A stretch of DNA of 64,000 nt from Patescibacteria group bacterium (GCA_038064195.1 JBBTTO010000003.1:178428-242427); one strand, 5' to 3'. Positions 3,203 through 63,904 are shown, counted from the first letter of the stretch. Notes: generated from the letters alone by a model not told the origin. A program made the numbers and translations.

Positions 3203-3322
3203 AAAGATATTGTAAAGAATTCAGAACCAATCGTCTACTCTGTTTGTTTGACTAACAGTGCCGACAAGCCTATAATACAGGCTTATTGTTCTTTAAAATA
3301 TTTTGGAAAGAGTAACTTCACA

Positions 3323-3357
3323 GTAAGTAGTACGTAGTTGGTAGTAAGTAGCAAGCC
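3323..3357. repeat. Degenerate tandem heptamer array (agtaagt agtacgt agttggt agtaagt agcaagc)
   Basis: Five contiguous 7-nt units read directly. It belongs to the same kind of array seen before other genes in this window. Confidence 0.6.
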
Positions 3358-7982: not shown

Positions 7983-7994
7983 AACGTTAGTATA

Positions 7995-8025
7995 GCAGTT
8001 AGCAGTTAGCAGTTAGCAGTTAGCA
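7995..8025. repeat. Tandem heptamer (gcagtta) x4.4 immediately upstream of the CDF transporter promoter
   Basis: Read directly: agcagtt agcagtt agcagtt agcagtt agca. Confidence 0.9.
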
Positions 8026-8030
8026 TAGGG

Positions 8031-8036
8031 TATAAT
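8031..8036 (+). promoter_or_regulatory. -10 TATAAT box 6 nt upstream of a GTG start (leaderless-type promoter)
   Basis: tagggTATAATagtaacGTG. No room for an SD sequence. Confidence 0.5.
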
Positions 8037-8042
8037 AGTAAC

Positions 8043-9005
8043 GTGCACCACGACAAAGATTCGCGGCTGACTTCCAAACGCGTCATCCTCACATCATTCT
8101 CCATAGACATTCTCGATCTTGTGTCAAGTATCGTCGTGGCTTGGCTTTCAGGCAGTATTGTTATGTTCACCCAAGCCCTGGAGGGGTTTACTGACCTCGT
8201 CTCAAGTGGTTTACTCGTCTTTGGGTTGAAGAGATCACTGCGTAAAGCGGATAAAGATCATCCTTTCGGCTACGGACGGGAGATTTATTTCTGGACGCTT
8301 ATTTCAGCCCTTGTTATGCTCGGGAGCACGGCTGTATTGTCTCTTTACTTTGGCTATCAGCGCTTTATCCACCCGTATCATCTGTCAGATGTACCATATG
8401 CTCTCATAGTCTTAGTTGTAACTATTTTTACTAACGGTTACGGTTTTACTTTAAGCTATCGGCGTTTACTCAAGGGGAGATCGTTGCGTAATATAGCTAG
8501 GGTTTTTTATCGTTCGTCTCTTATTGAAATCAAGACAACTTTTATCCTGGATTTGATGGGGACTTGTGCCTCAGTTTTGGGTATTATCGCGATCGGTCTC
8601 TACGCGTTAACAGGAGATTCCCGGTATGACGGATTGGGAGCTATGACTATCGGTCTGGTACTGATCTTTTTTGGCTTTTTCCTGATTGCCGGGATACGGG
8701 ATCTCTTGGTCGGACGCAGTGCTGCTCCCCATGTTGAGCAAAAGATCAGAGAAGCTGCTCTTAATGTCCCTGAGGTTGAGGATGTGCTCGGGATTAAGAC
8801 TGTCCATGTAGGGTCTGAAAAATTACTGGTGGCACTTGATGTGCATATGCATAGTGATTTAAAGACGCGCGAACTTGAGATGTTGATGGATGAGATAAAG
8901 GCAGAAGTCCGTAAAGTTGTACCGAGTGTCAAATATATTCAGGTGGAGTTGGAGACGAGGGATAGAAAAGAGATTAGAGGTAAGGCTAAGTGGCACAGTG
9001 GGTAG
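8043..9005 (+). CDS. Cation diffusion facilitator (CDF) family metal efflux transporter
   Basis: 6 TM helices plus a C-terminal cytoplasmic domain. Resembles CzcD/ZitB-like transporters. Confidence 0.8.
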   Translation: MHHDKDSRLTSKRVILTSFSIDILDLVSSIVVAWLSGSIVMFTQALEGFTDLVSSGLLVFGLKRSLRKADKDHPFGYGREIYFWTLISALVMLGSTAVLSLYFGYQRFIHPYHLSDVPYALIVLVVTIFTNGYGFTLSYRRLLKGRSLRNIARVFYRSSLIEIKTTFILDLMGTCASVLGIIAIGLYALTGDSRYDGLGAMTIGLVLIFFGFFLIAGIRDLLVGRSAAPHVEQKIREAALNVPEVEDVLGIKTVHVGSEKLLVALDVHMHSDLKTRELEMLMDEIKAEVRKVVPSVKYIQVELETRDRKEIRGKAKWHSG

Positions 9006-15591: not shown

Positions 15592-15606
15592 AAGAATTAA
15601 GAATTT

Positions 15607-15640
15607 GAAGTTAGAAGTCAGTAGTTAGCAGTTAGTTGTT
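15607..15640. repeat. Degenerate heptamer array (gaagtta gaagtca gtagtta gcagtta gttgtt) abutting the apbE ATG
   Basis: Read directly. Same g-agtta family as the array at 7995. Confidence 0.7.
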
Positions 15641-16420: not shown

Positions 16421-16480
16421 GTCTAGAAGACAGAATTAAGTATATTGTATACAGAATAAAAAGATAAAGAATAATCTTAC

Positions 16481-16508
16481 TTAATACTTAATACTTAATA
16501 CTTAATAC
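16481..16508. repeat. Tandem heptamer (ttaatac) x4 abutting the ATG of the membrane oxidoreductase gene
   Basis: Read directly: ttaatac ttaatac ttaatac ttaatac aaac ATG. Confidence 0.9.
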
Positions 16509-16512
16509 AAAC

Positions 16513-19336: not shown

Positions 19337-19366
19337 CCTTGACGCGTTTGGTATAATATATCCAGT

Positions 19367-19939
19367 ATGGTAAGCAAGAGTCCTGAAGGTGATCTTCTTC
19401 CTCATCATGGAGCCTCTAAAGTTGACCTCTCCCAGTTTCGTAGGCTTGATGTGCAACGTATAGGACCGGGTGAAGCATTGCTTCTTTATAATTCCGATGT
19501 GCCTGAAGCCGAGGAGGCTGTTATGGATGTGGGCGCAGATGAGAGGCCCGTAATAGGAGAAATCTCCCCCCAGACAAGACAGATAGTAAAAGATTTGATA
19601 ACCGGGCACGGGGAAGCGATACGGCATGCGACCTCAGGCGAAGGACCGGATGATTTTGGTACTGAGAGAAGTGGGCGGGAAGCCCTTCATGCGGCTATAA
19701 CTGGGTTGAGAGGAGATCGTGCGGGTAGAGGTGCATTCGGGAATATGGTAAAAGAGATCGTTGCAAGTAATGCCACTAAGGGTGTGTACGACCCTCCGGA
19801 CGACTCACTCGCATTTGCAAATGCCATACAAAGGTATGTCCAAGATCAAGCGGATAGGTTTTATGATGAATACGGAGTGCGTTATGATACTAAGCCGATA
19901 CCAATTCGCGGCCAAAATAGAGTTTCTGATGTAGCCTAA
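19367..19939 (+). CDS. Hypothetical protein (GC-rich island)
   Basis: 190-aa ORF with no domain recognised. Confidence 0.35.
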   Translation: MVSKSPEGDLLPHHGASKVDLSQFRRLDVQRIGPGEALLLYNSDVPEAEEAVMDVGADERPVIGEISPQTRQIVKDLITGHGEAIRHATSGEGPDDFGTERSGREALHAAITGLRGDRAGRGAFGNMVKEIVASNATKGVYDPPDDSLAFANAIQRYVQDQADRFYDEYGVRYDTKPIPIRGQNRVSDVA

Positions 19940-20554: not shown

Positions 20555-22240
20555 GTGAATAGGTTTTTGACATTTTTTATTTTTAGTTTTGTCACTTTTC
20601 TCCTCTTTCTCCCCGTGAAAGTCTCTGCACAGGAAGCTATTAATTCCTTTGATGTCTCCATGACTGCAGAGAAAAACGGAGATCTTAAGGTATCGGAAAA
20701 GATCGCATATAGCTTTGGTAGTTCGTACAGGCACGGCATTTATCGCTATATTCCACTCGTTTCACGAGTAGGTGATCTATATCGAGTAATCGACATCAAA
20801 TTTACCGGAATTCTCCGCGACGGGAAGAAAGAACAGTATTCCATAAATAGCAGTGGGGAGGAGATAAAAGTAAAGATAGGGGATGCCGACAAGACCATAT
20901 CCGGTCCGCATCTCTATGAGATCGATTACATCGTGCGAAATGGTATCGGGAGTAACTACGCGGATCATGACGAGATCTACTGGAACGTGACAGGGAATGA
21001 GTGGGGAGCACCTATCGAGGCTGCTTCGCTTTCTCTTGCCACAGATTTTGGTGTACCGGTTGGACGGACCATTTGTTTTACGGGACTGATAGGCTCAAAA
21101 GAAAGTAATTGTGAAGTGACCAATACGAATGGATCAGTAAAAGTCGCAACAGCTATCTCTCTTCCTCAGTCGCAAGGATTGACCTTTGTCTCGAAATTTC
21201 CGGTCGGGACTTTCCCTAAAAGTACCCTGCAAAAATCCATGCCTACCGACCCGGATGTCAAAGTATTTTTGATTATTGTAGGCATAGCATTTGTACTCCT
21301 CAATTTTATCCTCGCGCCATTCCTGCTCTCCTGGTATCTAAAAAAGCGCAATAAAACCAGATTTGGTCCGCCTACGGTGAATTTTGATCTGCCGGAGTCT
21401 TTTAATGGGGAGCGTATCAGTCCCTCAGAAGCGGGGACGATCGATAACACTAAGCTTGAGAAAGAAGATGTCGTGGCGACTATTTTTGATCTGGCGATCA
21501 GAAAATATCTCAAGATCGAAGGCACAATCAAAAAGACCAAATTTGGTTTGGGTGAGAGCCAAGACTTTACCCTCACCCGACTTGAGCCCCTCCAAAGGCG
21601 GGCAGGCCACTCATATGCCGAGCCACTCAATCAGTTTGAGAGTTATCTTATGGACAAGCTGTTTAAAGGTGAGAAGACCGCGACGTTAAAAACGGCCAAG
21701 CTGACCTATACGACTTTTTCAGATCTTGAGACCAAGAACTTCGCGTCATTGATCGGCCGCAATTTTTATAGCAAAAATCCCAAAACACAAAAATCATTCA
21801 GTCTGGTTTTTGGCCTCATGGCACTTTTTTCAGGATCGATCATCCTTGGCCCGGTGCTGTTGTATTTATCACGCAAATTAAATGGACGGACGACTCAAGG
21901 GGATGAGATGGATTGGAAGTTAGACGGGCTAAAGATTTTTCTCAAAGCGACCAAGAGATACGATGTCTGGCAGACCAAGAACTTTGTTTTCCTCGAGTCT
22001 ATGATCCCGTACGCGATGGCACTTGGGGTGATTGAGGATTACATGAAAGAGTTGAAGTTACTTAAGCCCAATTATAGTCCGAGTTGGTACAGCGGGCGGG
22101 GGAATTTCTATATGATGTATCCGCTTTTCAACTCAACAGCAAGCAGTAACGTCACGACCAGTGCCCCATCTTCCTCCAGTGGGTTCTCCGGTGGCTCCTC
22201 AGGTGGAGGAGGGGGAGGTGGCGGCGGCGGGTCTTGGTAG
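20555..22240 (+). CDS. DUF2207-family membrane protein with a Gly-rich C-terminal tail
   Basis: Signal peptide, large extracytoplasmic domain, TM helices, and a C-terminus ending GGSSGGGGGGGGGGSW. Confidence 0.7.
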   Translation: MNRFLTFFIFSFVTFLLFLPVKVSAQEAINSFDVSMTAEKNGDLKVSEKIAYSFGSSYRHGIYRYIPLVSRVGDLYRVIDIKFTGILRDGKKEQYSINSSGEEIKVKIGDADKTISGPHLYEIDYIVRNGIGSNYADHDEIYWNVTGNEWGAPIEAASLSLATDFGVPVGRTICFTGLIGSKESNCEVTNTNGSVKVATAISLPQSQGLTFVSKFPVGTFPKSTLQKSMPTDPDVKVFLIIVGIAFVLLNFILAPFLLSWYLKKRNKTRFGPPTVNFDLPESFNGERISPSEAGTIDNTKLEKEDVVATIFDLAIRKYLKIEGTIKKTKFGLGESQDFTLTRLEPLQRRAGHSYAEPLNQFESYLMDKLFKGEKTATLKTAKLTYTTFSDLETKNFASLIGRNFYSKNPKTQKSFSLVFGLMALFSGSIILGPVLLYLSRKLNGRTTQGDEMDWKLDGLKIFLKATKRYDVWQTKNFVFLESMIPYAMALGVIEDYMKELKLLKPNYSPSWYSGRGNFYMMYPLFNSTASSNVTTSAPSSSSGFSGGSSGGGGGGGGGGSW

Positions 22241-22440
22241 TTTTTTTCTTTTATTTTTCTTGGGGGTCGGTAGTAACTTTGAATCTTTTATCTTCGAACC
22301 TTTTATTTTTTTAGATCGATCTTGAATAAAGGTTACAGGACCATAAAAATTATTTTCAACTTTTTGTGAGTTGTGGGGTTCAAAATGAAGAAAATTTGAG
22401 AAATCTGCCCCTATTTTAAAAAGACTTTCAACGAGCTGGT

Positions 22441-22839
22441 TCATATTTTAAGTTCAATAATATAGAGTCTTCCTACTCCTGGAACGTTTTCCTGAGTCCA
22501 TTCGTATCTTCCATTGTGTTTTTTAGGATCGATATCATGTGCCTTTAAAAAACTGGTAGCTGAGACCGTTGCGTTGAACTTTTCTTTGGTAATTTTAAAG
22601 GTTGCTTTATCTTTATTATTAGTAGGCAAAATTCCTATTGCTCGTTTAGCTTTATCAAAAAATAAAATCACATAGTCATATTTTAAGATATCAGTAATTT
22701 TGCAAAATTTGGCTGAAAAGGCTATTGCGTAGTGCTGAGTAATAGAGATTTCTGCAGCTCCCGGAGTAAAGTCTTTCTCAAACTTAGTAAAGTTATAACT
22801 CATACTTCCCATAGTACCATTATATTTTCCCGTTGTCAA
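22441..22839 (-). CDS. Hypothetical protein carried on the approx 640-bp inserted segment
   Basis: 132-aa ORF. It is AT-rich and on the opposite strand to DUF2207. Confidence 0.4.
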   Translation of the reverse strand: MTTGKYNGTMGSMSYNFTKFEKDFTPGAAEISITQHYAIAFSAKFCKITDILKYDYVILFFDKAKRAIGILPTNNKDKATFKITKEKFNATVSATSFLKAHDIDPKKHNGRYEWTQENVPGVGRLYIIELKI

Positions 22840-22880
22840 TCTCCGTGTTTACCATTATCTCCATCAGTCTTTGCGGTAGT

Positions 22881-22921
22881 TCCTCAGGTGGAGGAGGCGG
22901 AGGTGGCGGAGGGTCTTGGTA
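22881..22921 (+). repeat. Direct repeat copy 2 of the DUF2207 3' end (in-frame relic ...GSSSGGGGGGGGGSW-stop without a start codon)
   Basis: tcctcaggtggaggaggcggaggtggcggagggtcttggtaa compared with copy 1 at 22196-22240 is about 38/41 identical. Confidence 0.8.
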
Positions 22922-23002
22922 ACCCCAGCTTCCCAATTCCTTCTCTCCAAGTAAAAAGAGAGTCGCGTTCTCTAGGTAATGGAATAGTGGTATAATGACC
23001 TC

Positions 23003-23236
23003 ATGCTAGAGAAAGAATATAAATATTATAAAGACAATCAAAAGGATTTCCTGAGTAAGTATAAAGGGAAAGTTTTAGTCATAAAAGAAGAAAAGCTTAT
23101 TGGTGTCTATGACGATGAAGCAGTTGCATATGATGCAACGGTATCTGTTCATCCACTGGGAACGTTTCTTATTCAAAGATGTGTGCCTGATAATGAAACT
23201 GTGCAATCATTCCACTCAAGAGTGATCTTTTCATGA
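23003..23236 (+). CDS. DUF5678-like small protein
   Basis: 77 aa. KGKVLVIKEEKLIGVYDDEAVAYDAT...GTFLIQRCVPDNE fits my memory of DUF5678. Confidence 0.45.
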   Translation: MLEKEYKYYKDNQKDFLSKYKGKVLVIKEEKLIGVYDDEAVAYDATVSVHPLGTFLIQRCVPDNETVQSFHSRVIFS

Positions 23237-23242
23237 AAAATA

Positions 23243-23827
23243 ATGCAAGACTTTCAAGCTTTTACTGTAAAGTATTCTGGTAGAACTAATGTACTTCAAA
23301 GCGAGGTAGCTATTTCAGCCGCGTTTGATCCCACTATAGTAGTCAAAGTGAATAGACCTCAATCCGTTAAAGCAATGGCGATTTGGGATACCGGTGCTAG
23401 CTGTAGTGTGATCTCAAAAAACTTAGCACAGAAAATTGGCCTTGTTCCTTCGGGGAAAACTACAATTACTGGAGTGAATCATACTACTTTGGAGAATACA
23501 TATCTCGTTAATGTATACCTACCAAACAATGTTTGTGCAGGATATATAAGAATCGCAGAAGTCCCTGCGTTATCAGGTGGTGCTGACGTCTTAATTGGAA
23601 TGGATATTATTGGTGAGGGAGACTTTTCGCTGTACTTAGAAAATGGGTGTAGCGTTATGAGTTATAGATTACCGAGTATTGGAGGAACGGATTATGTGGT
23701 TTTAGCAGGGAACATCAATAACCAGCAAGCTTTGCGTCAAAAAATTATGAACGAAAAATCAAATCTTTCTCGAATGAATAGGGCAAAGGCTATGCACAAA
23801 AGAAGGTCAAAGAAAAAGAAGAATTAA
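23243..23827 (+). CDS. Retropepsin-like (clan AA) aspartic protease with a basic C-terminal tail
   Basis: IWDTGAS (DTGA catalytic motif) and LIGMDII flap/dimer motif. The tail is KAMHKRRSKKKKN. Confidence 0.7.
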   Translation: MQDFQAFTVKYSGRTNVLQSEVAISAAFDPTIVVKVNRPQSVKAMAIWDTGASCSVISKNLAQKIGLVPSGKTTITGVNHTTLENTYLVNVYLPNNVCAGYIRIAEVPALSGGADVLIGMDIIGEGDFSLYLENGCSVMSYRLPSIGGTDYVVLAGNINNQQALRQKIMNEKSNLSRMNRAKAMHKRRSKKKKN

Positions 23828-23882
23828 TTAAACCTTTGATCAGTGGGCTCGTTATTCTAATCATAATCTTCGGATAAGGAAA

Positions 23883-24662
23883 CTATTTTAACAATGAAGC
23901 TTCTTCGTAGGTGTTAGGGATAATATTTTTCTCTATTGAATATACCGCAACTAATATTGAGTCATAAGTCTGAGTACTTTCATCATACCCTTGAGGATAT
24001 TGTTCTAATTGCTCTCCAAATAAATTATTAATTTCGTTAATTATAGTTGCTCTTTCTTTTTTTGAAAGAAGATAAGGAATTTCTCCAGTAGGGTTATCAG
24101 ATTTTGGATAATCATAATAGAGAGAGGCAATTTGGGGTGCCGATATAAAAATTGTTTTGAACCCACTATCTCTATCAGTGTTGTGCTTAGCAACCGCATA
24201 ACTTAAATTTTCTTCATAATTCGGGTCGTTATAGTCAATCTTTCGCAAATAGGCAATAAAATCATTATTTGCTTTTATGACCTTATTTGCTCCTAGAGTC
24301 ATACCTTCAGCACTGAGAGAAATTACTTGATTGGGGTCGTTAACATACTTCTGAACAGAAGAATTTCCATCTTTCATATAATCATTCTGTTTTAATAGAG
24401 TCGTAATTGCTTGAGTAAGAACGTCTTGGTCTTGGTGCGTATTTGTATTTTGACCAGCTAATTCATAGTAAGATAAGGCATTTAGTATATCCAACGAGGC
24501 CTCAACCTTATTTTGGGCAGACTTTACAATTCCGATTGTTGGAGTCATGACTTGAGATCCTTCATAAACTGTCTTAGTAGAATTATTTTGATTAAAATAA
24601 TATAACCCTCCAAGAACTAAAAGGATAATAATAAGCCAAGATTTATTAGTATTGTTTTTCAT
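23883..24662 (-). CDS. Membrane-anchored secreted hypothetical protein
   Basis: N-terminal TM helix. AT-rich. Confidence 0.45.
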   Translation of the reverse strand: MKNNTNKSWLIIILLVLGGLYYFNQNNSTKTVYEGSQVMTPTIGIVKSAQNKVEASLDILNALSYYELAGQNTNTHQDQDVLTQAITTLLKQNDYMKDGNSSVQKYVNDPNQVISLSAEGMTLGANKVIKANNDFIAYLRKIDYNDPNYEENLSYAVAKHNTDRDSGFKTIFISAPQIASLYYDYPKSDNPTGEIPYLLSKKERATIINEINNLFGEQLEQYPQGYDESTQTYDSILVAVYSIEKNIIPNTYEEASLLK

Positions 24663-24683
24663 TTGTTATAGTTTACTTCAAGT

Positions 24684-25130
24684 TTATAACCACTGGCTGA
24701 CACCGCCATGATGAGAGCATGTTCCACGCCTACTCTGACTAAAACTATATGTCCCGTCTCCACAGATAGCTGTTGCTCCTGCAGGTACAGAATTTGAGTA
24801 GGCAGGTGAGTGGACTTCATTTCCAGCACTATTTGTATAGTAATTATCATTACTTAGCCCTGATTGTGTTGTAGCTGCTGGGATTGGCGTAGGTGTACTA
24901 GTTGGAGCGACATAGATTTTTTTAGGTGTCGGTGTTGCGGTTGGAAAAGGAGTTGGAGTGTTGGTAGGAAGTGGGGTAGGAGTAACGATTTCTTGGACGG
25001 CTGTAGGTACAGAGGTAACGACAGTATTTAAGCCTTTTACTTCGCTTTGAGAAGGTTGACCATATGAAGATAAACCTCCAATGACGAGAATCCCTACCAC
25101 AGCCGCAATAGTAATTCCTTTAGTACTCAT
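24684..25130 (-). CDS. Secreted Thr/Pro-rich protein with a C-terminal DUF3761 domain
   Basis: The C-terminus CGDGTYSFSQSRRGTCSHHGGV matches the DUF3761 C...C-S-x-H-G-G-V signature. Confidence 0.55.
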   Translation of the reverse strand: MSTKGITIAAVVGILVIGGLSSYGQPSQSEVKGLNTVVTSVPTAVQEIVTPTPLPTNTPTPFPTATPTPKKIYVAPTSTPTPIPAATTQSGLSNDNYYTNSAGNEVHSPAYSNSVPAGATAICGDGTYSFSQSRRGTCSHHGGVSQWL

Positions 25131-25203
25131 TTATAGCCGGGCAGTTATCAGACTATACTCCTATAGTATTAAATTGTCAAGAAACTATAAGGTAGTGGTA
25201 TAA

Positions 25204-25908
25204 TTGCGACGAATGAAAATACAAGACGATATTATTTCTTACAGAGAGATGTGTGATATCGAAAATGTTCAAACCCTTCAAAGAGGTATGAATTATCGAT
25301 TAAACAGAGATTATTCAGTGATTCTCCTCTCTCAAAGAACTAATGCTCCATATCAAGACAAGATTCATGAAGACGGCATCTCTATTGAATATGAGGGTCA
25401 TGATATATCGAGAAAAGGCTATGATCATAATCCTAAAGCGTATGATCAGGAGTCAAGACTCCCATCTGGAAGATTAACTCAAAATGGGTTATTTCTTCAA
25501 GCGGCTGAAGAATATAAGCGTGGTCAACGAAAGCCAGAGTTAATAAAAGCCTATGAAAAAATTATGGATGGGGTTTGGTCATTAAAAGGCTTTTTTGAGT
25601 TAGTGGATTATAAAATAGAACATGATGGGGCTAGAAATACTTTTCATTTTATTTTAAGACTGACAAATGACCAGTCAGTGAGAAATATTGAAAAAATTGA
25701 TGTGGCTCACACTCGACTTATTCCGTCGCAGGTTAAAAAAGAAGTCTGGAAAAGAGATGGGGGTAAGTGTGTGATTTGTGAAAGTCGTAATAATTTACAT
25801 TTTGACCATGAACTCCCGTTTTCAAAAGGTGGGACAAGTCTAACCTCAAAAAATGTTCAACTTCTTTGTATGAAACATAATCTAGAAAAGTCTGCGAAGA
25901 TAGAGTGA
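25204..25908 (+). CDS. HNH endonuclease with an N-terminal SRA-like (putative modified-cytosine reader) domain
   Basis: C-terminus GGKCVICESRNNLHFDHELPFSKGG...CMKHN is an HNH motif. N-terminus DYSVILLSQRTNAPYQDKIHEDGISIEYEGHD resembles the SRA core. A TTG or internal ATG start follows directly after TATAAT. Confidence 0.55.
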   Translation: MRRMKIQDDIISYREMCDIENVQTLQRGMNYRLNRDYSVILLSQRTNAPYQDKIHEDGISIEYEGHDISRKGYDHNPKAYDQESRLPSGRLTQNGLFLQAAEEYKRGQRKPELIKAYEKIMDGVWSLKGFFELVDYKIEHDGARNTFHFILRLTNDQSVRNIEKIDVAHTRLIPSQVKKEVWKRDGGKCVICESRNNLHFDHELPFSKGGTSLTSKNVQLLCMKHNLEKSAKIE

Positions 25909-26007
25909 TTTTTGTACCTACCGCGAAGCAGTTAAAAAAGTGGAGCTCTAAATACCCAACTCTTCCATATTGCTTTTTGATTTTTGGGGATTTATACTAA
26001 TTCTTAG

Positions 26008-30833: not shown

Positions 30834-30892
30834 TCAGTCTGTCCACGAAATTTACTCCGTTTTCTGAGCAAGTTCAGGTATAATAGATATCT

Positions 30893-31603
30893 ATGGATGA
30901 ACTAATTTTCTTAGACACCGAGACGACCGGGAACGACTTGCTGGCTGACCGCCTATTCCAGGTCTGCTACAAACATAACGGTAAGATGACGTCAGAATAT
31001 TTTAAGCCTCCTGTGCCGATCAGTGTTAAATCCCAAAGCATCACCCATGTGACCAACAAAATGGTGGCGGACAAACCCGCCTTCAAAGACAGTCAGATGA
31101 AGAAAGATTTGCATGAATTACTCAAAACGCATGTGATGGTGGCACACAATGCCGTCTTTGATATCGCCATGCTCGTCCATGAAGAGGTGAGTGTGCCCAG
31201 ATTTATCTGTACCCTCAAAATTGCCCGCTATTTGGATAAAAACGGTGTCATCCCTGAATACAATTTGCAGTACCTGCGGTACTACTTGGAGCTGGATGTG
31301 GAGGCACAGGCCCATGAAGCAGAAGATGATGTCAAAGTCGTTGAGGCACTTTTTAAGAGGCAATACGCCAAAATGCTCGAGCTCCATGGTGATCATGCGA
31401 AAGTCGTTGAGGAGATGATCAAAATCTCACTTGAACCGAGTCTGTTCACGCTTTTCCCCTTCGGCAAGCACAAAGGGCGTAAAATTGAAGAGGTCATCAT
31501 CAGTGATCGGCCATATGTGGAGTGGCTGCTTGAGCAAAAAATGCAAAACCCCGATGATCTGGACTGGATTTATACGCTCAAATTCCACCTTAAAACGCTC
31601 TGA
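30893..31603 (+). CDS. DEDD-family (DnaQ-like) 3'-5' exonuclease with a C-terminal DUF3820-like domain
   Basis: Exo I FLDTETTG, Exo II VAHNAVFDIAML. The C-terminus FGKHKGRKIEEVIISDRPYVEWL fits the DUF3820 motif. Confidence 0.7.
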   Translation: MDELIFLDTETTGNDLLADRLFQVCYKHNGKMTSEYFKPPVPISVKSQSITHVTNKMVADKPAFKDSQMKKDLHELLKTHVMVAHNAVFDIAMLVHEEVSVPRFICTLKIARYLDKNGVIPEYNLQYLRYYLELDVEAQAHEAEDDVKVVEALFKRQYAKMLELHGDHAKVVEEMIKISLEPSLFTLFPFGKHKGRKIEEVIISDRPYVEWLLEQKMQNPDDLDWIYTLKFHLKTL

Positions 31604-36832: not shown

Positions 36833-37440
36833 TTACAGGCATTATCCGCCCAGAGGCCGATCCTGGCAGCAATCGCTGCTTTTTCTGCCTTTTTATATTC
36901 TGCTTGATATTTGTACGGCATCGCATAGGTATACTCATGTGCCATTCCTTCCTCAAGTGCCCCGAGGCCATAGTCATCAGATCCGTTGATAAAGACGTAT
37001 CTTAATAATCGTCCGTATTTATCTTTATCACTCTGTGTCGGATCAGACTCGAGGAAGACATATTTCCCCAAAAGTAATTCTTTGGCACGGTCTGAGGCGG
37101 CTTTACCCATACATTGAACGGGCTTACGCGGATCGACAGTCTCGGGAGTGTCAATTCCGATGACTCGGATTGTCTGGTTTTTCCCGTTGAGTATCACATG
37201 CAGCGTATCACCATCGACGACCTTAGTGACTTTTATTAGTCCGTTTTGCTCCTGGATACTTGTCGGGGTCGCGACTGTCCTCACGCCTTCGACAGCGGAT
37301 TGATGAGGGACAAGTGACGTGTAGGCTTTTTCACCGGCTATGAGGAAAATGATGATAAGAAGAGAGATGACAGCACGCCGTAGCTTACGATTCATGATCA
37401 TCCCGAGTATACCTTTGGGCGGAGCGGTTTTCAATCCCAT
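36829..37440 (-). CDS. Secreted thermonuclease (staphylococcal nuclease, SNase-like)
   Basis: VVDGDTLHVILNGKNQTIRVIGIDTPE, YGRLLRYV and EGMAHEY are SNase catalytic motifs. N-terminal TM anchor. Confidence 0.75.
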   Translation of the reverse strand: MGLKTAPPKGILGMIMNRKLRRAVISLLIIIFLIAGEKAYTSLVPHQSAVEGVRTVATPTSIQEQNGLIKVTKVVDGDTLHVILNGKNQTIRVIGIDTPETVDPRKPVQCMGKAASDRAKELLLGKYVFLESDPTQSDKDKYGRLLRYVFINGSDDYGLGALEEGMAHEYTYAMPYKYQAEYKKAEKAAIAARIGLWADNACN

Positions 37441-37466
37441 TTCTTTCTGCTAGAGTATATTTCACT

Positions 37467-37513
37467 CAGAGAACAGAGAACAGAGAACAGAGAACAGAGA
37501 ACAGAGAACAGAG
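37467..37513. repeat. Tandem heptamer (cagagaa) x6.7 upstream of the nuclease gene (read ttctctg on its strand)
   Basis: Read directly. Confidence 0.95.
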
Positions 37514-37526
37514 TTCGTGTTAGTCT

Positions 37527-37580
37527 TGTTTACTGTTTACTGTTTACTGTTTACTGTTTACTGTTTACTGTTTACTGTCA
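37527..37580. repeat. Tandem heptamer (tgtttac) x7.7 immediately upstream of the helicase ATG
   Basis: Read directly. Confidence 0.95.
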
Positions 37581-37587
37581 TTAACTT

Positions 37588-38904
37588 ATGACCCAAGCTG
37601 AAGCACTCGATATTCTCAAATTAGGCCACAATGCTTTTCTCACCGGGCCGGCAGGCTCAGGTAAGACCTACCTCCTCAATCAATTTATCAAATATCTCCG
37701 CCTTAACAATGTCAGTGTCGGAATTACTGCCTCGACAGGCATCGCTGCCACTCATATGGGTGGCACGACTATCCATAGTTGGTCGGGGATGGGGATCCGG
37801 GACGAGATGGATGAGCGGGCGATAGCAGATCTCCTCAAGAGACAGTATCTCAGAAAGCATTTTTTAAAGACCAAAGTCCTCATAATTGACGAGATCTCGA
37901 TGCTGCATGCTTTTCAACTCGATTTGGTGCACAGTATCTGTCGGGCTTTTAAAAAAATCGAGTACCCCTTCGGCGGAATGCAGGTCGTGATGTGCGGAGA
38001 TTTTTTTCAACTCCCGCCTGTCTCCAAAGCAGATGGTGAGTCCAGATTTGTCACCGACTCGACGATCTGGAACGAGATGAAGCTGCGCATTTGCTATCTT
38101 GATGAGCAGTACCGTCAGAGTGATCGGGCATTCCTGCGAGTTCTCAATGATATCAGGAGTGGGGATGTCAATGAAGACACAGTCGAAGTCTTATCCGAGC
38201 GGCTCAACAAAGAGCCGGAGGGATATACCCGTCCGACCCGTCTTTTTACGCACAACGCGGATGTAGACGTGGTGAACAAGACCCATTTAGATGCACTTGT
38301 GGGAGAAGCACATGAATATCGCATGATAGGGCGTGGCAATCCTAACCTGGTTGAAGTTCTGCGTAAGACCTGTCTGGCGCCTGAGAAGCTCATTCTCAAA
38401 AAAGGTGCACAGGTAATGTTTGTTAAAAATAATTATGAAGTGGGGTACGTCAACGGCACACTAGGTGAGGTCATCGGCTTTGATAAGGTCGATGCGCCTA
38501 TCGTCCGGACTTTTGACGGGGCCGAAATCGCTGTCAGTCAGATGAGTTGGGAAGTGAAAGAGGAAAACACTGAGTTGGCAGCCATCAGCCAGGTACCGCT
38601 TAGACTTGCCTGGGCGATTACTGTCCATAAGTCTCAAGGTATGTCACTGGATGCTGCGGAGGTTGACCTTTCACGTTCGTTTGTCCCGGGGCAGGGGTAT
38701 GTAGCGTTATCTCGACTCAGAGGCCTCAAGGGTCTAAAGCTTATGGGGATGAATCAGATGGCTTTGACGGTGAATTCTGATGTGGCGGAAATGGATAGGG
38801 AGTTTCGCCGTCTCTCAGATGAAGCAGTGCTGGATTTGCAAAAATTAGATTTACAGACCAAAGAGCAAAAGCAAAAAGACTACCTGCATTACTTGCAAAG
38901 ATGA
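37588..38904 (+). CDS. SF1B ATP-dependent DNA helicase, PIF1/RecD-like
   Basis: Walker A GPAGSGKTYLL, IIDEISM, GDFFQLPPV, QYRQSD and TVHKSQGMSLD. Confidence 0.7.
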   Translation: MTQAEALDILKLGHNAFLTGPAGSGKTYLLNQFIKYLRLNNVSVGITASTGIAATHMGGTTIHSWSGMGIRDEMDERAIADLLKRQYLRKHFLKTKVLIIDEISMLHAFQLDLVHSICRAFKKIEYPFGGMQVVMCGDFFQLPPVSKADGESRFVTDSTIWNEMKLRICYLDEQYRQSDRAFLRVLNDIRSGDVNEDTVEVLSERLNKEPEGYTRPTRLFTHNADVDVVNKTHLDALVGEAHEYRMIGRGNPNLVEVLRKTCLAPEKLILKKGAQVMFVKNNYEVGYVNGTLGEVIGFDKVDAPIVRTFDGAEIAVSQMSWEVKEENTELAAISQVPLRLAWAITVHKSQGMSLDAAEVDLSRSFVPGQGYVALSRLRGLKGLKLMGMNQMALTVNSDVAEMDREFRRLSDEAVLDLQKLDLQTKEQKQKDYLHYLQR

Positions 38905-42692: not shown

Positions 42693-42728
42693 TTTTATCC
42701 TCAAAGATATAAGGTATAATTATTTTTT

Positions 42729-43865
42729 ATGGTGGATATACCTGTCGAGCCTATACCTATAGCCACACTCCCTCCTGACGATCCTAAGAAAAGATCACGA
42801 GTTATTTTGCTGTCTGTTGTTGTGGTTTTGCTTGGCATATTTTTACTGTTGTTCCGTTTTATCCCCTTACAACCTTCATCATCTCCCTCTCTTTTGAGTA
42901 AAACTGTTTCCTCTCCGACGCCTTTTCCTTTTGTGGAGATGACTATCCCATATCTGCGGGCGAGATCGTATACAAGTAGCTTGGGACAGAGAGAGCTTTA
43001 CTCACAAGGGAGTAGTTATACTTCATACTTGAGTAGTTATACCTCTGATGGTTTGAAGGTGAATGGTTTGTTAACCATACCAACTGGTAAGCCAGAGGAT
43101 TATGGTTGGCCCGCCAGCAACGCTTTGCGTAGCAATGCGGGCTGGCCGGCTATTGTCTTTATCCACGGCTACCTCTCGCCGACTCTTTACGTTACAACTG
43201 AACGCTACAACGACTATGTTGACTATTTGGCCCGGAACGGATTTGTCGTTTTTAAGATCGATCTGCGGGGTCATGGGGAGTCGGAAGGGCAAGCAGGGGG
43301 AGGGTATTTCGGCTCTGACTATGTCGTTGATGCACTTAACGCCAGAGCGGCTTTGCAGTCAGCGGATTTCGTCAATAAAGATAAAGTCGGTCTGTGGGGG
43401 CATAGTATGGCCGGCAATATCGTCATGAGATCTTTAGCCGTCAAGCCTGAGATCCCGGCAGCGGTGATCTGGGCGGGAGCAGTCTATTCATATACCGATC
43501 AGCGTAAATACGGGATCAATGATCAGAGTTACCGTCCGTCCGGGACTCCCACGCAACAAAATAGACGTCGAAGTGACCTCTTCCAAAAAGTCGGCAGTCC
43601 GAGCGCGACAAGTCCCTTCTGGCGTGAGGTGGCACCGACCAACTATCTAGCGGATCTCAAAGGTGCAATCGAGGTCCATCACGCACTGGATGATACTGTC
43701 GTCAATATCGGTTATAGCCGTGATCTTGTGACATTACTTGATCAAACAACCGTTCCGCATGAGTTTTATACCTATCCCTCAGGCGGGCACAACCTTGAGG
43801 GAGCGAGCTTTACACTCGCCATGCAACGGACAGTCGAGTTCTTCAAGAAATATCTTTCTCCATAA
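42729..43865 (+). CDS. Membrane-anchored alpha/beta-hydrolase (S9/dienelactone hydrolase-like)
   Basis: GHSMAGN nucleophile elbow. N-terminal TM helix. Confidence 0.6.
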   Translation: MVDIPVEPIPIATLPPDDPKKRSRVILLSVVVVLLGIFLLLFRFIPLQPSSSPSLLSKTVSSPTPFPFVEMTIPYLRARSYTSSLGQRELYSQGSSYTSYLSSYTSDGLKVNGLLTIPTGKPEDYGWPASNALRSNAGWPAIVFIHGYLSPTLYVTTERYNDYVDYLARNGFVVFKIDLRGHGESEGQAGGGYFGSDYVVDALNARAALQSADFVNKDKVGLWGHSMAGNIVMRSLAVKPEIPAAVIWAGAVYSYTDQRKYGINDQSYRPSGTPTQQNRRRSDLFQKVGSPSATSPFWREVAPTNYLADLKGAIEVHHALDDTVVNIGYSRDLVTLLDQTTVPHEFYTYPSGGHNLEGASFTLAMQRTVEFFKKYLSP

Positions 43866-43936: not shown

Positions 43937-44065
43937 ATGGCAGAAGTTAAATATACCTGTACACCCTGCGGAACTGACTTCAATGATCTGGAGTCACTTA
44001 ACCAGCATCAGTCTACACAGCACGCGACCAAAACTGAAGTTACTGTTGAAGGTGAAAGAAAGTAA
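43937..44065 (+). CDS. 42-aa peptide with a canonical C2H2 zinc-finger spacing (C-x2-C-x12-H-x4-H)
   Basis: MAEVKYTCTPCGTDFNDLESLNQHQSTQHATKTEVTVEGERK. TGgTACAAT extended -10 lies about 12 nt upstream. Not in the ORF track because it is under 60 aa. Confidence 0.4.
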   Translation: MAEVKYTCTPCGTDFNDLESLNQHQSTQHATKTEVTVEGERK

Positions 44066-44278
44066 CTGACTACTGACAACTAATATCTAATTACATACTA
44101 TATCTCTTGACGCGCTCATCTATATGTGAGTAGAGTAATAGTAATGCCCGTTCACTTGGGCTTTGGTATAGCCCGCAGACAGATTAATGTTTCCGGCAGG
44201 GATTTCACTGTAACTCCTCATCGAGGAGGGGGACTCCTTTTTCTTCAAAATTTTTTCCGACGAAACATACATATTACA

Positions 44279-44604: not shown

Positions 44605-44637
44605 AAAATCCTGCTTCTTGTAAGCAGGATTTTTTAT
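44605..44637 (+). terminator. Rho-independent terminator (aaatcctgctt-cttgt-aagcaggattt + TTTTT)
   Basis: Read directly. Confidence 0.75.
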
Positions 44638-44695
44638 TTACTGATTACTGGTCTCTGTTTTTTTGTTATTAATATGTGTTAGGATAGGGCAGTCT

Positions 44696-45352
44696 ATGCC
44701 CGAAAGCCTCAAAATAACTGTTGTCCGTTCACGTAGACGCAGTTTGTCTCTTCACATTGAATCCGACGGTACTGTCGAGGTTAGAGCGCCATTTTTTGCC
44801 CTGCAGCGTCATATCGATCAGTTCGTCAGGGAACATCGAGACTGGATTGATAAACATGTCCATAAAATACACATCGCCACCTCTTTAAAAGCTGATAATG
44901 AATATCTTTTTTTGGGCCAACGTCTCAAAGTGACTCCGGGTAACTATACAGAGATCAGGGTTGAGGGAGAGCATCTTTTTTTTCCTCAGTCACTCCTTTT
45001 TCGTAAGGAGAAAGAGATTGATCAGTGGTACCAACGGGAAGCGCGCAGACTTATCACAGCGCAGGTAGAGAAGTATAGTCAACAGATGGGGACTGAGTAC
45101 CGAGGTCTCACTTTTTCAGACACGACCTCACAGTGGGGAAGATGCAGCCATGATAATAGACTCCAGTTCAGCTGGCGACTCATCATGGCGCCCGTGCTCG
45201 TCCTCAACTACGTAGTCATCCATGAGTTGGCACATACTATGGAAAAAAATCACTCCAGAGCTTTTTGGTCAAAAGTCCGGCAATTCACCCCGTCATACAG
45301 ACAGCAAATGAAGTGGCTGAAAGACCACGGTCGCACCCTGCATAATGTTTAA
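44696..45352 (+). CDS. YgjP-like (DUF45) M48-family zinc metallopeptidase
   Basis: HELAHTMEKNHS is an HExxH motif and the start MPESLKITVVRSRRRSL is typical of the family. Confidence 0.7.
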   Translation: MPESLKITVVRSRRRSLSLHIESDGTVEVRAPFFALQRHIDQFVREHRDWIDKHVHKIHIATSLKADNEYLFLGQRLKVTPGNYTEIRVEGEHLFFPQSLLFRKEKEIDQWYQREARRLITAQVEKYSQQMGTEYRGLTFSDTTSQWGRCSHDNRLQFSWRLIMAPVLVLNYVVIHELAHTMEKNHSRAFWSKVRQFTPSYRQQMKWLKDHGRTLHNV

Positions 45353-45539
45353 GTTTAAATCCTAAATTCGAAGCACGAAATTCTAAACAAATTCGAATTA
45401 CCAAATCCCAAAACTTTCAGACCTTTGGATTAAAATTTTGATATTATTTAGGATTTAGATATTGGGATTTAGGATTTTGTTTAAGACTATATCTCTTGCG
45501 GTGATAATTCAGGTCTTGATAGAATAATAATTCGTTCTT

Positions 45540-61817: not shown

Positions 61818-61850
61818 GCAAAACTTTTCTTCGAATAAGGCTGCAGGTTC

Positions 61851-61859
61851 TGCTATAAT
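61851..61859 (+). promoter_or_regulatory. Extended -10 TGcTATAAT 6 nt upstream of the ychF ATG (leaderless)
   Basis: Read directly. Confidence 0.5.
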
Positions 61860-61865
61860 CTCAGG

Positions 61866-62963
61866 ATGAATCTATCTGTAGGAATTGTTGGATTGCCAAA
61901 TGTGGGGAAGTCCACGCTTTTTAATGCGCTTTTGAAGAAACAGCAGGCTTTGGCTGCCAATTATCCTTTCGCCACCATTGAGCCCAATGTCGGGATAGTC
62001 CCTGTGCCTGATAATCGTTTGACCCAACTTGCAGAGATTACAAAAGAAGAGGAAAAAATGGCAAGTCTGCCTCCTATTAAGCCAGCCACCGTGGAATTTG
62101 TAGATATTGCCGGTCTCGTGAAGGGAGCTTCAGAAGGTGCGGGACTGGGAAATAAATTCTTAAGTCACATCCGTGAGGTGAGTGTTATCGCACACGTCGT
62201 GAGGGCATTTGAGGATGCCGATGTGATCCGTGAGGGCAGTACGACACCGGATGAGGATTATAAAACAATCCAGACAGAATTAATTCTGGCAGATCTCCAG
62301 ACGCTGGAGAAAATCCGTGACAATCGTAAGATGGAGCCGATCAAACATACAGTCGCGATCAAATTAATGGCAGCGCTTAATAATGGTACACGGGCATTTG
62401 ATGTTTCGTTATCTGATGAGGAACGAGAAGCCACTCGGGACATGTTTTTACTGACGAATAAACCGGAGGTCATCGTCCTCAATGTCACCGAAGCAGAATA
62501 TAATGAATCCACAATTCTGGAGAGGATTTCTTCTTATGCCAAGGTTTTATCACTTCCTGAAGACCGCTTTGTCGTGATCTGTGCCAAGATTGAGTCAGAA
62601 CTTGCAGGGCTTGATGAAGTGGATCAACAAGTTTATCTCGCCGAATTAGGAGTAGGATCGTCAGGTTTGGAAAGATTGATTAAAAAGACCTACGAAAGAT
62701 TAGGTTTGATTTCCTTCTTAACAGCCGGGGAGAAGGAAGTCAGGGCTTGGACTGTAAGAAAAGGTAGTACTGCGCCTGTGGCAGCAGGGGAGATCCATAC
62801 TGACTTTATCAAAAAGTTTATTAAAGCCGAAGTAATTAGTTTTGACGATTATATTTCAGCGGGAGGCCGTAAAAAGGCGAGGGAAATAGGGAAAGCGCGC
62901 CTAGAAGGCAAAGACTACATAGTTGCTGATGGAGATGTAATAGAATTTAAAATCGGAAGCTAA
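61866..62963 (+). CDS. ychF: Redox-regulated ribosome-binding ATPase YchF (Obg-family)
   Basis: [17 protein letters not shown] and the C-terminal TGS domain. Confidence 0.9.
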
Positions 62964-63518: not shown

Positions 63519-63797
63519 ATGAGATTATATGATTTAGTTTTGGTTCTTAAGACATCACTTACTGAGGCGCAACGCACTAAAGTTGTCGATCAGGTAAAGA
63601 GTTGGCTTGGTGATGTCAAAGTCGTGAATGTTGATGACTGGGGTCAAAAGCCTCTCGCATATCCGATCAAAAAGGAAGCGGCAGGAGTCTATGTCAAGTT
63701 CAATTTAGAGACTGAGAAGACAATTCCTAATGATTTTGAAACAAGAGTTTTTAGAGCTGACGGTGTCCTACGACACCTATTGCTTAGAACTAAGTAA
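63519..63797 (+). CDS. rpsF: 30S ribosomal protein S6
   Basis: MRLYDLVLVL...DDWGQKPLAYPIKK. The ATG is internal to the longer TTG-initiated ORF in the track. Confidence 0.8.
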   Translation: MRLYDLVLVLKTSLTEAQRTKVVDQVKSWLGDVKVVNVDDWGQKPLAYPIKKEAAGVYVKFNLETEKTIPNDFETRVFRADGVLRHLLLRTK

Positions 63798-63904
63798 ACT
63801 CGAAGCACGAATTTCGAAGCTCGAAACAAATATAAAATAATAAATACAAAATAGTTTCGGATTTCGATATTCGGATTTGGAATTTCTTTCCGAAGGAAAG
63901 TGAT

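Follow-up and report, generated by a model that had tools for sequence, protein, structure and literature searches.

Perfect heptanucleotide arrays between divergent nuclease and helicase genes in a groundwater Patescibacteria genome

In a 64,000-nucleotide stretch of DNA from a Patescibacteria group bacterium (GCA_038064195.1 JBBTTO010000003.1:178428-242427), referred to as the window in the following, the divergent genes for a staphylococcal-nuclease-like protein (SNase) and a PIF1-family helicase are separated by a spacer that carries two perfect tandem arrays of 7-nt units back to back, array 1 on the SNase side and array 2 on the PIF1 side (Table 1). These arrays are probably young heptanucleotide microsatellites that expanded in place, and one instance of a trait that runs through the whole clade. 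On this reading, slipped-strand mispairing would have expanded single heptamers that were already present in an ancestral SNase-PIF1 spacer of ≈ 75 bp; the intergenic DNA of the clade, often just upstream of start codons, would repeatedly spawn perfect 7-nt arrays, and these would change by whole units, swap their unit sequence, and decay. Both arrays would reside in the upstream promoter region of PIF1 or, with a TATATT start to the left of array 1, in a leader of ≈ 120 nt. We infer slippage as the mechanism; both arrays are perfect, which argues for recent expansion.

Architecture of the SNase-PIF1 spacer

Two back-to-back heptamer arrays had been described in the initial annotation, and both were recovered by Tandem Repeats Finder (TRF) and by an exact-period scan, with array 2 corrected from 7.7 to 7.4 copies and its end moved from 37580 to 37578. 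TRF reported a 100% match and zero indels for arrays 1 and 2, and a run of at least 40 consecutive lag-7 matches in 64 kb makes a chance origin impossible. The public source contig (Hainich groundwater, 0.1 µm fraction, ≈ 64x coverage) is identical to the window at the arrays. Logan assemblies from at least four other sequencing runs terminate in identical repeat-flank junctions, and since these assemblies are independent, the arrays cannot be an artefact of a single assembly. The 13 nt between the arrays, TTCGTGTTAGTCT, bear a by-eye likeness to the GTGTTGCAAT block in the spacers of relatives, and their placement in the MAFFT alignment of the spacers (A2) is ambiguous.

The divergent arrangement of an SNase-type nuclease gene (PF00565) and a PIF1-family helicase gene (PF05970) was confirmed by Pfam matches. 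The start codon of PIF1 is backed by the conserved N-terminus MTQxEAL, in which M1 and Q3 are invariant throughout the alignment of PIF1 proteins (A1). The start of SNase is placed at 37401, or at 37395, by the public gene calls on long contigs and by the N-termini of homologues, which read MRKLRR in relatives and MIMNRKLRR in the window. It follows from this start that the gap between both genes amounts to 186 bp; the figure of 147 bp proposed earlier came from an over-long SNase open reading frame (ORF) starting at 37440. Repeats account for 99 bp of the 186 bp (53%), and the gap is therefore not made up almost entirely of repeats as had been supposed. Likewise, of the two arrays said to abut a gene start, only array 2 does so (9 bp from the ATG of PIF1), whereas array 1 is separated from the SNase start codon by 65 bp that contain the SNase promoter.

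The only ORFs in the array region are 20-37 aa long. In the whole window, an Rfam search gave zero matches at the gathering threshold, and tRNA genes are absent. A replication origin with iterons was considered for the arrays and rejected, because the rise of the cumulative GC skew over the 64 kb is close to monotonic; it dips only slightly at 26-32 kb and does not switch at 37.5 kb.

Heptamer arrays in the window and in its relatives

The SNase-PIF1 arrays do not stand alone. Four of the five perfect tandem repeats found in the window by the exact-period scan (period 4-15, at least 3 copies) are heptamers, and at a relaxed setting (85% match over 3 copies) lag 7 yields five arrays, compared with 0-2 for lags 5, 6, and 8-12. 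This census, which covers 64 kb of the 1.08-Mb genome, comprises four perfect and at least four degenerate heptamer arrays, the latter at 3322, 15609, and 44064 and within the palindromic elements described below; TRF detected degenerate period-7 arrays at 3322, 15609, 45446, and 63799-63886. All heptamer arrays of the window are intergenic, most of them just upstream of start codons, and at least seven different units occur among them, rather than one or a few units fixed genome-wide. For comparison, 511 kb from 80 other Patescibacteria PIF1 loci (at most 71% identity) contained a single perfect heptamer array; this background set came from a GTDB genome scan with the PIF1 alignment, which was saturated by universal helicase motifs and did not recover the window's own species. 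Close relatives, in contrast to this background, do carry such arrays. Contig L087 has (AACAGAG)n at its end together with a 14-mer array, L095 has (CAACTGA)n, and in L089 the arrays (TTGGTCG)6 and (CTAACTA)6.6 stand back to back and fill the spacer after a Peptidase_M10 gene. Perfect heptamer arrays are thus a lineage-specific trait. Similar arrays at unrelated places, such as operon junctions and the region upstream of a cation-efflux gene, suggest a general mutational trait and not targeted contingency loci.

Two of these places deserve a closer description. At 7983-8042, the 60-bp divergent spacer between a 100-aa ORF and the cation-efflux gene is filled by (TAGCAGT)x4.7 between outward-facing -10 boxes of the leaderless type (TATACT, 6 nt, ATG and TATAAT, 6 nt, GTG); because the array fills everything between the -10 boxes, both -35 regions would fall inside the repeat. 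In the FMN_bind-ApbE-NAD_binding reductase cluster, arrays sit in the junctions at 15592-15640 and 16421-16512, whereas the corresponding junctions of L089 (1616-1621 and 2343, the latter 0 bp, i.e., overlapping) are all but closed. Judged from this comparison, heptamer arrays appear to have opened up operon-internal junctions of the cluster.

History and turnover of the site

Relatives at 77-85% PIF1 identity and JGI relatives kept the divergent SNase-PIF1 pair with a spacer of 65-95 bp that is devoid of arrays; in some of the 77-85% relatives an extra gene is inserted in the arrangement. When the 112-bp array block is subtracted from the spacer of the window, 74 bp remain. In alignment A2, the unit TGTTTAC is located opposite a single TTGTTAC of the relatives, and the stretch that leads on to the ATG is related as well. 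The match of the unit with TTGTTAC points to an expansion of array 2 in place. The closest relative found, L095 (90% PIF1 identity), is represented by a Logan contig whose first bases already belong to a perfect (CAACTGA)n array. This array ends at a homologous junction, ...ACTGAC TATTGACTT ATG in L095 versus ...ACTGT CATTAACTT ATG in the window, and both share a conserved ATT(A/G)ACTT-ATG. From these sequences, an array at this site would predate the split between the window and L095, would have been re-homogenised to another unit in one of the two lineages, and is absent from the next-closest relatives. As far as can be read from the alignments, the history of the spacer has the pattern expected for a fast-cycling microsatellite born in place. 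A metagenome scan with SNase gave eight loci, none with arrays at the spacer; one same-species contig among them (L109) stops short of the spacer.

Arrays of this type change by 7-nt units within the lineage, as several comparisons show. Contigs L089 (JGI) and L090 (ENA) are identical at 21,317 positions apart from (TTGGTCG), which is present in 6 versus 4 copies. The array at 44064-44095 has an orthologue in L087 that is exactly two 7-nt units longer, with two gaps of 7 nt each in the BLAST alignment, and at the SNase-PIF1 site itself another unit is found in L095. The window's genome exists in assemblies of 1,075,823 and 1,075,913 bp, and since these differ, indels must occur somewhere in the genome. 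By extension from the other arrays of the lineage, the SNase-PIF1 arrays are probably length-variable and very probably hypermutable.

Rearrangements of larger size have also taken place around the gene pair. In L095 (1384-2270), a HicB-like antitoxin gene and an IS200/IS605-type Y1 transposase gene take the place of the genes that otherwise follow PIF1, and in L087 SNase and PIF1 are set apart by an inserted Maf gene and a 142-aa ORF. The SNase-PIF1 neighbourhood would therefore seem to be prone to rearrangement.

Promoter-like sites and possible effects on SNase and PIF1

A promoter scan of 37300-37700 returned TTGAAA-17-TATACT, in front of SNase, as the sole sigma-70-like match. Only 4 nt separate its -10 box from the ATG at 37401, a leaderless or near-leaderless geometry, and the site falls within the over-long ORF. 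In approximately one third of the genes of the window, a TATAAT- or TATACT-like box, often with GG in front of it, precedes the start codon by 5-9 nt and there is no Shine-Dalgarno sequence, and some of the remaining genes have clear GGAGG-type sites; the sequence suggests that leaderless or nearly leaderless mRNAs are widespread in this genome. Array 1 is found ≈ 30-80 bp upstream of the SNase -35 box. It had been argued that each unit gained or lost would shift promoter geometry, but because the predicted -35/-10 pair lies wholly between array 1 and the gene, changes in unit number would be unable to alter its spacing, and array 1 should have little effect on SNase.

For PIF1 the situation is less simple. 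The periodicity of array 2 extends to the PIF1 start, such that gain or loss of a unit leaves the proximal ≈ 50 bp the same, and there is no outside -35/-10 pair flanking the array. Going by these positions, the core-promoter geometry of PIF1 would not depend on unit number. Two readings may be considered. In the first, the last unit of array 2 could supply a weak -10 box (TACTGT, 9 nt, or TGTCAT, 6 nt before the ATG) and the array a TTTACT -35 box. Direct inspection shows that every unit of array 2 holds TTTACT and TACTGT (TAnnnT) hexamers with the spacing TTTACT-N17-TACTGT; because every unit carries identical hexamers, the proximal PIF1 promoter would be unchanged by copy number. The array-internal sigma-70 promoter TTTACT-17-TACTGT matches at 7/12 positions, which is under the scan threshold, and it was kept as a possibility only. 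In the second reading, TATATT at 37456-37461, the plus-strand face of a nearly palindromic motif just left of array 1, would be a candidate -10 box of PIF1, and both arrays would then be part of a leader of ≈ 120 nt. This reading draws on analogy with the relatives, the only evident -10 box of which is a single palindromic AGTATACT in their 65-95 bp spacer, ≈ 50 nt upstream of PIF1; the AGTATA motif found here is the second such motif in the spacer of the window. The candidate TATATT has no -35 box and was missed by the promoter scan. Taken as a whole, array length would at most tune PIF1 in a graded way, with no on/off switching via -35/-10 spacing, and may be near neutral.

Alternative explanations

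The initial annotation had recognized a classic phase-variation architecture, i.e., a contingency locus in which gain and loss of 7-bp units alter the geometry of the divergent promoters and switch SNase and/or PIF1 heritably and reversibly. This now appears unlikely. The tracts are indeed long and perfect (6.7 and 7.4 copies) and lie in a divergent promoter region, arrays of the lineage do change by whole units, experiments have shown phase variation through a heptamer repeat upstream of hmw1A (PMC12721329), and a secreted nuclease can be imagined, as we do here, as a plausible variable trait of a nucleotide-scavenging epibiont. Against this stand the complete SNase -35/-10 pair on the gene side of array 1, the periodicity of array 2 to 9 nt from the ATG, which keeps the sequence near the gene constant with copy number, the occurrence of similar arrays at housekeeping and operon-internal junctions, and the relatives that have the same gene pair without arrays. 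Quite unlikely, too, is a scheme in which PIF1 is transcribed from TATATT (37456-37461) and both arrays form, within the ≈ 120-nt leader, an imperfect hairpin of the hmw kind (6 bp and 1 mismatch per unit) that controls processing, stability, or translation of the mRNA, with its length set by repeat number. The units of both arrays are complementary at 5/7 positions (GAACAGA and the reverse complement AAACAGT), or at 6/7 with G.U on the PIF1 sense strand; the predicted fold has a minimum free energy of -47 kcal/mol (z=-3.1) on the plus and -46.6 kcal/mol (z=-4.4) on the minus strand, and the back-to-back pair of L089 is also predicted to fold (-42.6 kcal/mol, z=-6.5). A small predicted stem, GUCAU-UAACUU-AUGAC (37576-37591), would form between the PIF1 start codon on one side and the junction and last bases of array 2 on the other, and the lone evident -10 box of the relatives suggests a leadered PIF1 mRNA. 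Precedents are the heptamer hairpin in the 5'-untranslated region (5'-UTR) of hmw, which is cut by RNase III (PMC12721329), the hairpins of short tandemly repeated repetitive sequences (STRR; PMC2670836), and the 70-75 inverted pairs of Xanthomonas (PMC4692102). However, 5/7 complementarity is reached by 9% of random heptamer pairs, and random array pairs fold equally well in 15% (window pair) and 12% (L089 pair) of cases; among 288 pairs built from the lineage's own units, the window pair ranks 41 and the L089 pair 36. The strand that pairs better in L089 runs antisense to the genes on either side, in L090 the arms are unequal (4 versus 6.6 copies), the candidate PIF1 promoter has the shortcomings given above, and Rfam knows no family in the window. 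By these folding models, the partial complementarity of the arrays looks no better than chance, and the hairpin may be regarded as a possibility.

The arrays could also be binding sites for a protein that reads heptamer registers. This could be the repeat-recognising regulator proposed at the outset or a protein that binds single strands, e.g., one with a cold-shock domain. The units seem to be drawn from a limited set that is met again at unrelated loci, ACT/AGT is contained in 7/9 units, and CspB, with one protein per heptamer, was raised as a possibility for TAACTGA repeats (PMC4679880). The units nevertheless differ between both arrays and within one genome, and none is conserved across relatives. 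An iteron or operator array would be expected as a site conserved in relatives with the same genes; here, the site is missing at 77-85% identity and has another unit at 90%. The units sampled are few and not all independent of each other, and no candidate binder was identified. An array of this kind must be considered very improbable. Equally improbable is that the 112-bp block is an inserted palindromic element with heptamer arms, similar to miniature inverted-repeat transposable elements (MITE) or repetitive extragenic palindromic (REP) sequences, and akin to but younger than the elements at 45350-45490 and 63790-63895. The size of the block equals the excess over the spacers of relatives, the window and L087 share the dispersed palindromic element with heptamer-like arms (one copy being in-frame in PIF1 of L087), and a Y1 transposase gene adjoins PIF1 in L095. 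But BLAST of 37440-37590 against the window and the relatives matched the bare CAGAGAA array in L087 only, with no shared flanks or loop; the unit of array 2 and the ATG junction align with the ancestral spacer, the unit found in L095 at this junction is a different one, and a target-site duplication is not evident. The elements at 45350-45490 and 63790-63895 do have dispersed copies, whereas the BLAST comparison gave no further copy of the array block with common ends and interior.

Microsatellite expansion in place remains the preferred explanation, and a number of points weigh against it. The reads behind L089 and L090 may overlap, in which case the length difference between both contigs reports heterogeneity and not necessarily a difference between samples. 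The sole full-length copy of the locus available for comparison, found by exact-protein look-ups with PIF1, with SNase in versions of 189, 190, and 203 aa, and with neighbours of other arrays, is identical to the window, and all Logan contigs break off exactly 30 nt into an array, the k-mer collapse expected for perfect repeats. Arrays at junctions that measure 0-4 bp in relatives require more than the expansion of an existing spacer. Furthermore, identical units are found at non-orthologous loci of different genomes: CAGAGAA at 37467 of the window and at 17776-17805 of L087; AGTTAGT/ACTAACT at 15609 of the window and, as the reverse complement, at 110-155 of L089; and CAACTGA-type units in L095 (1-29), L087 (17145), and the window (44064). 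The shared ACT/AGT, counted by direct reading, belongs to the same picture. By our own estimate, random expectation would be ≈ 0.05-0.1 unit coincidences among ten units drawn from ≈ 1,170 rotation/strand heptamer classes. Recurrence of units is not predicted by pure random-seed slippage; in this small sample it may point to preferred sequences when arrays arise, to selection, or to arrays that move. A more far-reaching proposal, which has a slim chance of being correct, is a heptamer system of the clade beyond random slippage. In it, gene starts would be seeded time and again, in some cases with inverted pairs, from a limited number of units (ACTGnnn-like, CAGAGAA, AGTTAGT), and the arrays would act either in transcribed leaders with length-variable hairpins (hmw/RNase III-like) or through a heptamer-register protein, with heritable, reversible tuning of many genes including PIF1 in an ultra-small, host-dependent bacterium. 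If true, the Candidate Phyla Radiation (CPR) would gain its first described contingency system based on repeats. As a separate observation, at 44637-44662 the short sequence TTTACTG ATTACTG GTCTCTG is found downstream of a terminator-like hairpin and combines the unit of array 2 with a near copy of the reverse complement of the array 1 unit; the corresponding region of L087 has the (AACAGAG)n array.

Relation to known heptamer repeats

To our knowledge, mechanistic understanding of heptamer repeats is confined to hmw of Haemophilus influenzae. Passages in two papers (PMC4692102, PMC4679880, both citing Mrazek 2007) characterize bacterial heptamer repeats as over-represented, intergenic, and different in length between close relatives, with polymerase slippage proposed as their origin. 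The (GGGAATC)n repeats of Xanthomonas and the (GGGGA[C/T]T)n repeats of Nostoc resemble the arrays of the window in having a 7-nt unit, a mostly intergenic location, and many arrays per genome (Rehm et al. 2015, PMC4692102). They vary in length and sequence between close genomes, a slippage origin was proposed, and no function has been assigned to them; in Xanthomonas, adjacent arrays of opposite orientation are frequent, at 70-75 pairs per genome (PMC4692102). In contrast to these systems, which essentially use one G-rich, quadruplex-prone unit, the arrays of the window are each built from an A/T-rich unit of their own that is free of G-tracts, the pair between SNase and PIF1 is only 5/7 complementary, and the host is a Patescibacterium with a genome of ≈ 1 Mb.

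The STRR of cyanobacteria and the TAACTGA repeats of Beggiatoaceae, cyanobacteria, and Bacteroidetes are likewise tandem 7-bp intergenic units upstream of starts or within operons, with hairpin potential and without demonstrated function (PMC2670836, PMC4679880). The unit CAACTGA of L095 is one base from TAACTGA. Unlike the window, with its many units, up to 7.4 perfect copies, and fast turnover at one site, these repeats comprise few units fixed genome-wide, usually in 2-6 copies. In H. influenzae, a perfect heptamer repeat, (ATCTTTC)n, is located immediately upstream of hmw1A and hmw2A and varies in copy number (PMC12721329, PMC8262952). The 5'-UTR repeat and a complementary arm form a long imperfect hairpin, and the arrays of the window could form a similar one if transcribed. 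In hmw, however, there are at least 11 repeats, the partner arm is a non-repeat, G-rich sequence, and the transcription start site, RNase III cleavage, and graded expression were established by experiment for a surface adhesin of a host-adapted pathogen, whereas the genes next to the arrays of the window encode a nuclease and a helicase and the pairing of the arrays is no better than chance.

In hifA/hifB of H. influenzae, a TA repeat lies between the -35 and -10 boxes of overlapping divergent promoters, and unit changes alter the length of the spacer. Both loci have a repeat in a divergent intergenic region. In the window, the SNase hexamers stand outside array 1, and array 2 would bring its own periodic -35/-10-like hexamers; spacing would therefore be unaffected by copy number, unlike in hifA/hifB.

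In the literature library that was searched, no paper was found to join Patescibacteria with simple sequence repeats or phase variation. The locus can be rationalized as an ordinary example of heptanucleotide repeats that arise by slippage, of the kind known from STRR, Xanthomonas, and hmw. This kind is new to Patescibacteria; the locus does not speak for a promoter switch, and its main value rests with the lineage-wide pattern. Non-coding DNA is scarce in a groundwater Patescibacteria genome of ≈ 1 Mb, and arrays that double spacers and open operon junctions stand out. If they are length-variable, they would serve as strain-resolving markers for tracking CPR populations and as a natural test of expression tuning by heptamer repeats outside pathogens.

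Table 1. Coordinates of arrays, genes, and promoter-like sites (window positions unless a contig is named)
Feature	Position	Strand or orientation	Basis
Array 1, (CAGAGAA)x6.7, perfect	37467..37513	minus-strand reading (TTCTCTG)n	TRF; exact-period scan
Array 2, (TGTTTAC)x7.4, perfect; ends 9 nt before PIF1 ATG	37527..37578		TRF; exact-period scan
Non-repeat spacer between arrays, 13 nt, TTCGTGTTAGTCT	37514..37526		sequence
SNase (staphylococcal-nuclease-like) gene, 190 aa	36829..37401	minus	Pfam PF00565, E=8e-20; 190-aa call on public long contigs
PIF1-family helicase gene, 438 aa	37588..38904	plus	Pfam PF05970, E=1e-38; conserved N-terminus MTQxEAL
SNase core promoter-like site, TTGAAA-17-TATACT	37406..37434	minus	promoter scan, 10/12 matches
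Nearly palindromic motif AGAGTATATT, just left of array 1	37452..37461	TATACT minus; TATATT (37456-37461) plus	sequence
Start-proximal TATAAT/TATACT-like boxes, examples	8031-8045, 19350-19369, 30875-30895, 42712-42731, 61850-61868		
Sister array (TAGCAGT)x4.7, perfect	7993..8025		TRF; exact-period scan
Sister array (TACTTAA)x4.4, perfect, 4 nt before NAD_binding reductase start; junction 0 bp in L089	16478..16508		
Degenerate sister array (AGTTAGT)x4.7, filling FMN_bind-ApbE junction; junction 4 bp in L089	15609..15641		
Degenerate sister array (AGTAAGT)x4.9, in divergent spacer	3322..3355		
Degenerate heptamer array AACTGAC TACTGAC AACTAAT ATCTAAT	44064..44095		BLAST alignments
Back-to-back heptamer arrays of relative	L089 36-155 vs L090 50-155		

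Further features of the window

A dispersed palindromic element of ≈ 100-140 bp with degenerate heptamer-like arms (CGAAnnn / CTAAATC) is found at 45350-45490 and 63790-63895 of the window and at 2381-2440 and 10439-10560 of L087. The PIF1 gene of L087 holds a copy of the palindromic element in-frame, which adds 31 aa (469 versus 438 aa) and leaves the ORF and the Pfam domain matches intact, and is in this respect reminiscent of Rickettsia, where palindromic elements insert into coding genes. Apart from this, the region 22000-26000 has a low GC content of 0.36-0.38, compared with ≈ 0.45 elsewhere, and may be an acquired island. It contains a divergent gene pair (24684-25130 on the minus and 25204-25908 on the plus strand), the spacer of which carries TTGACA/TATAGT-type boxes on both strands.

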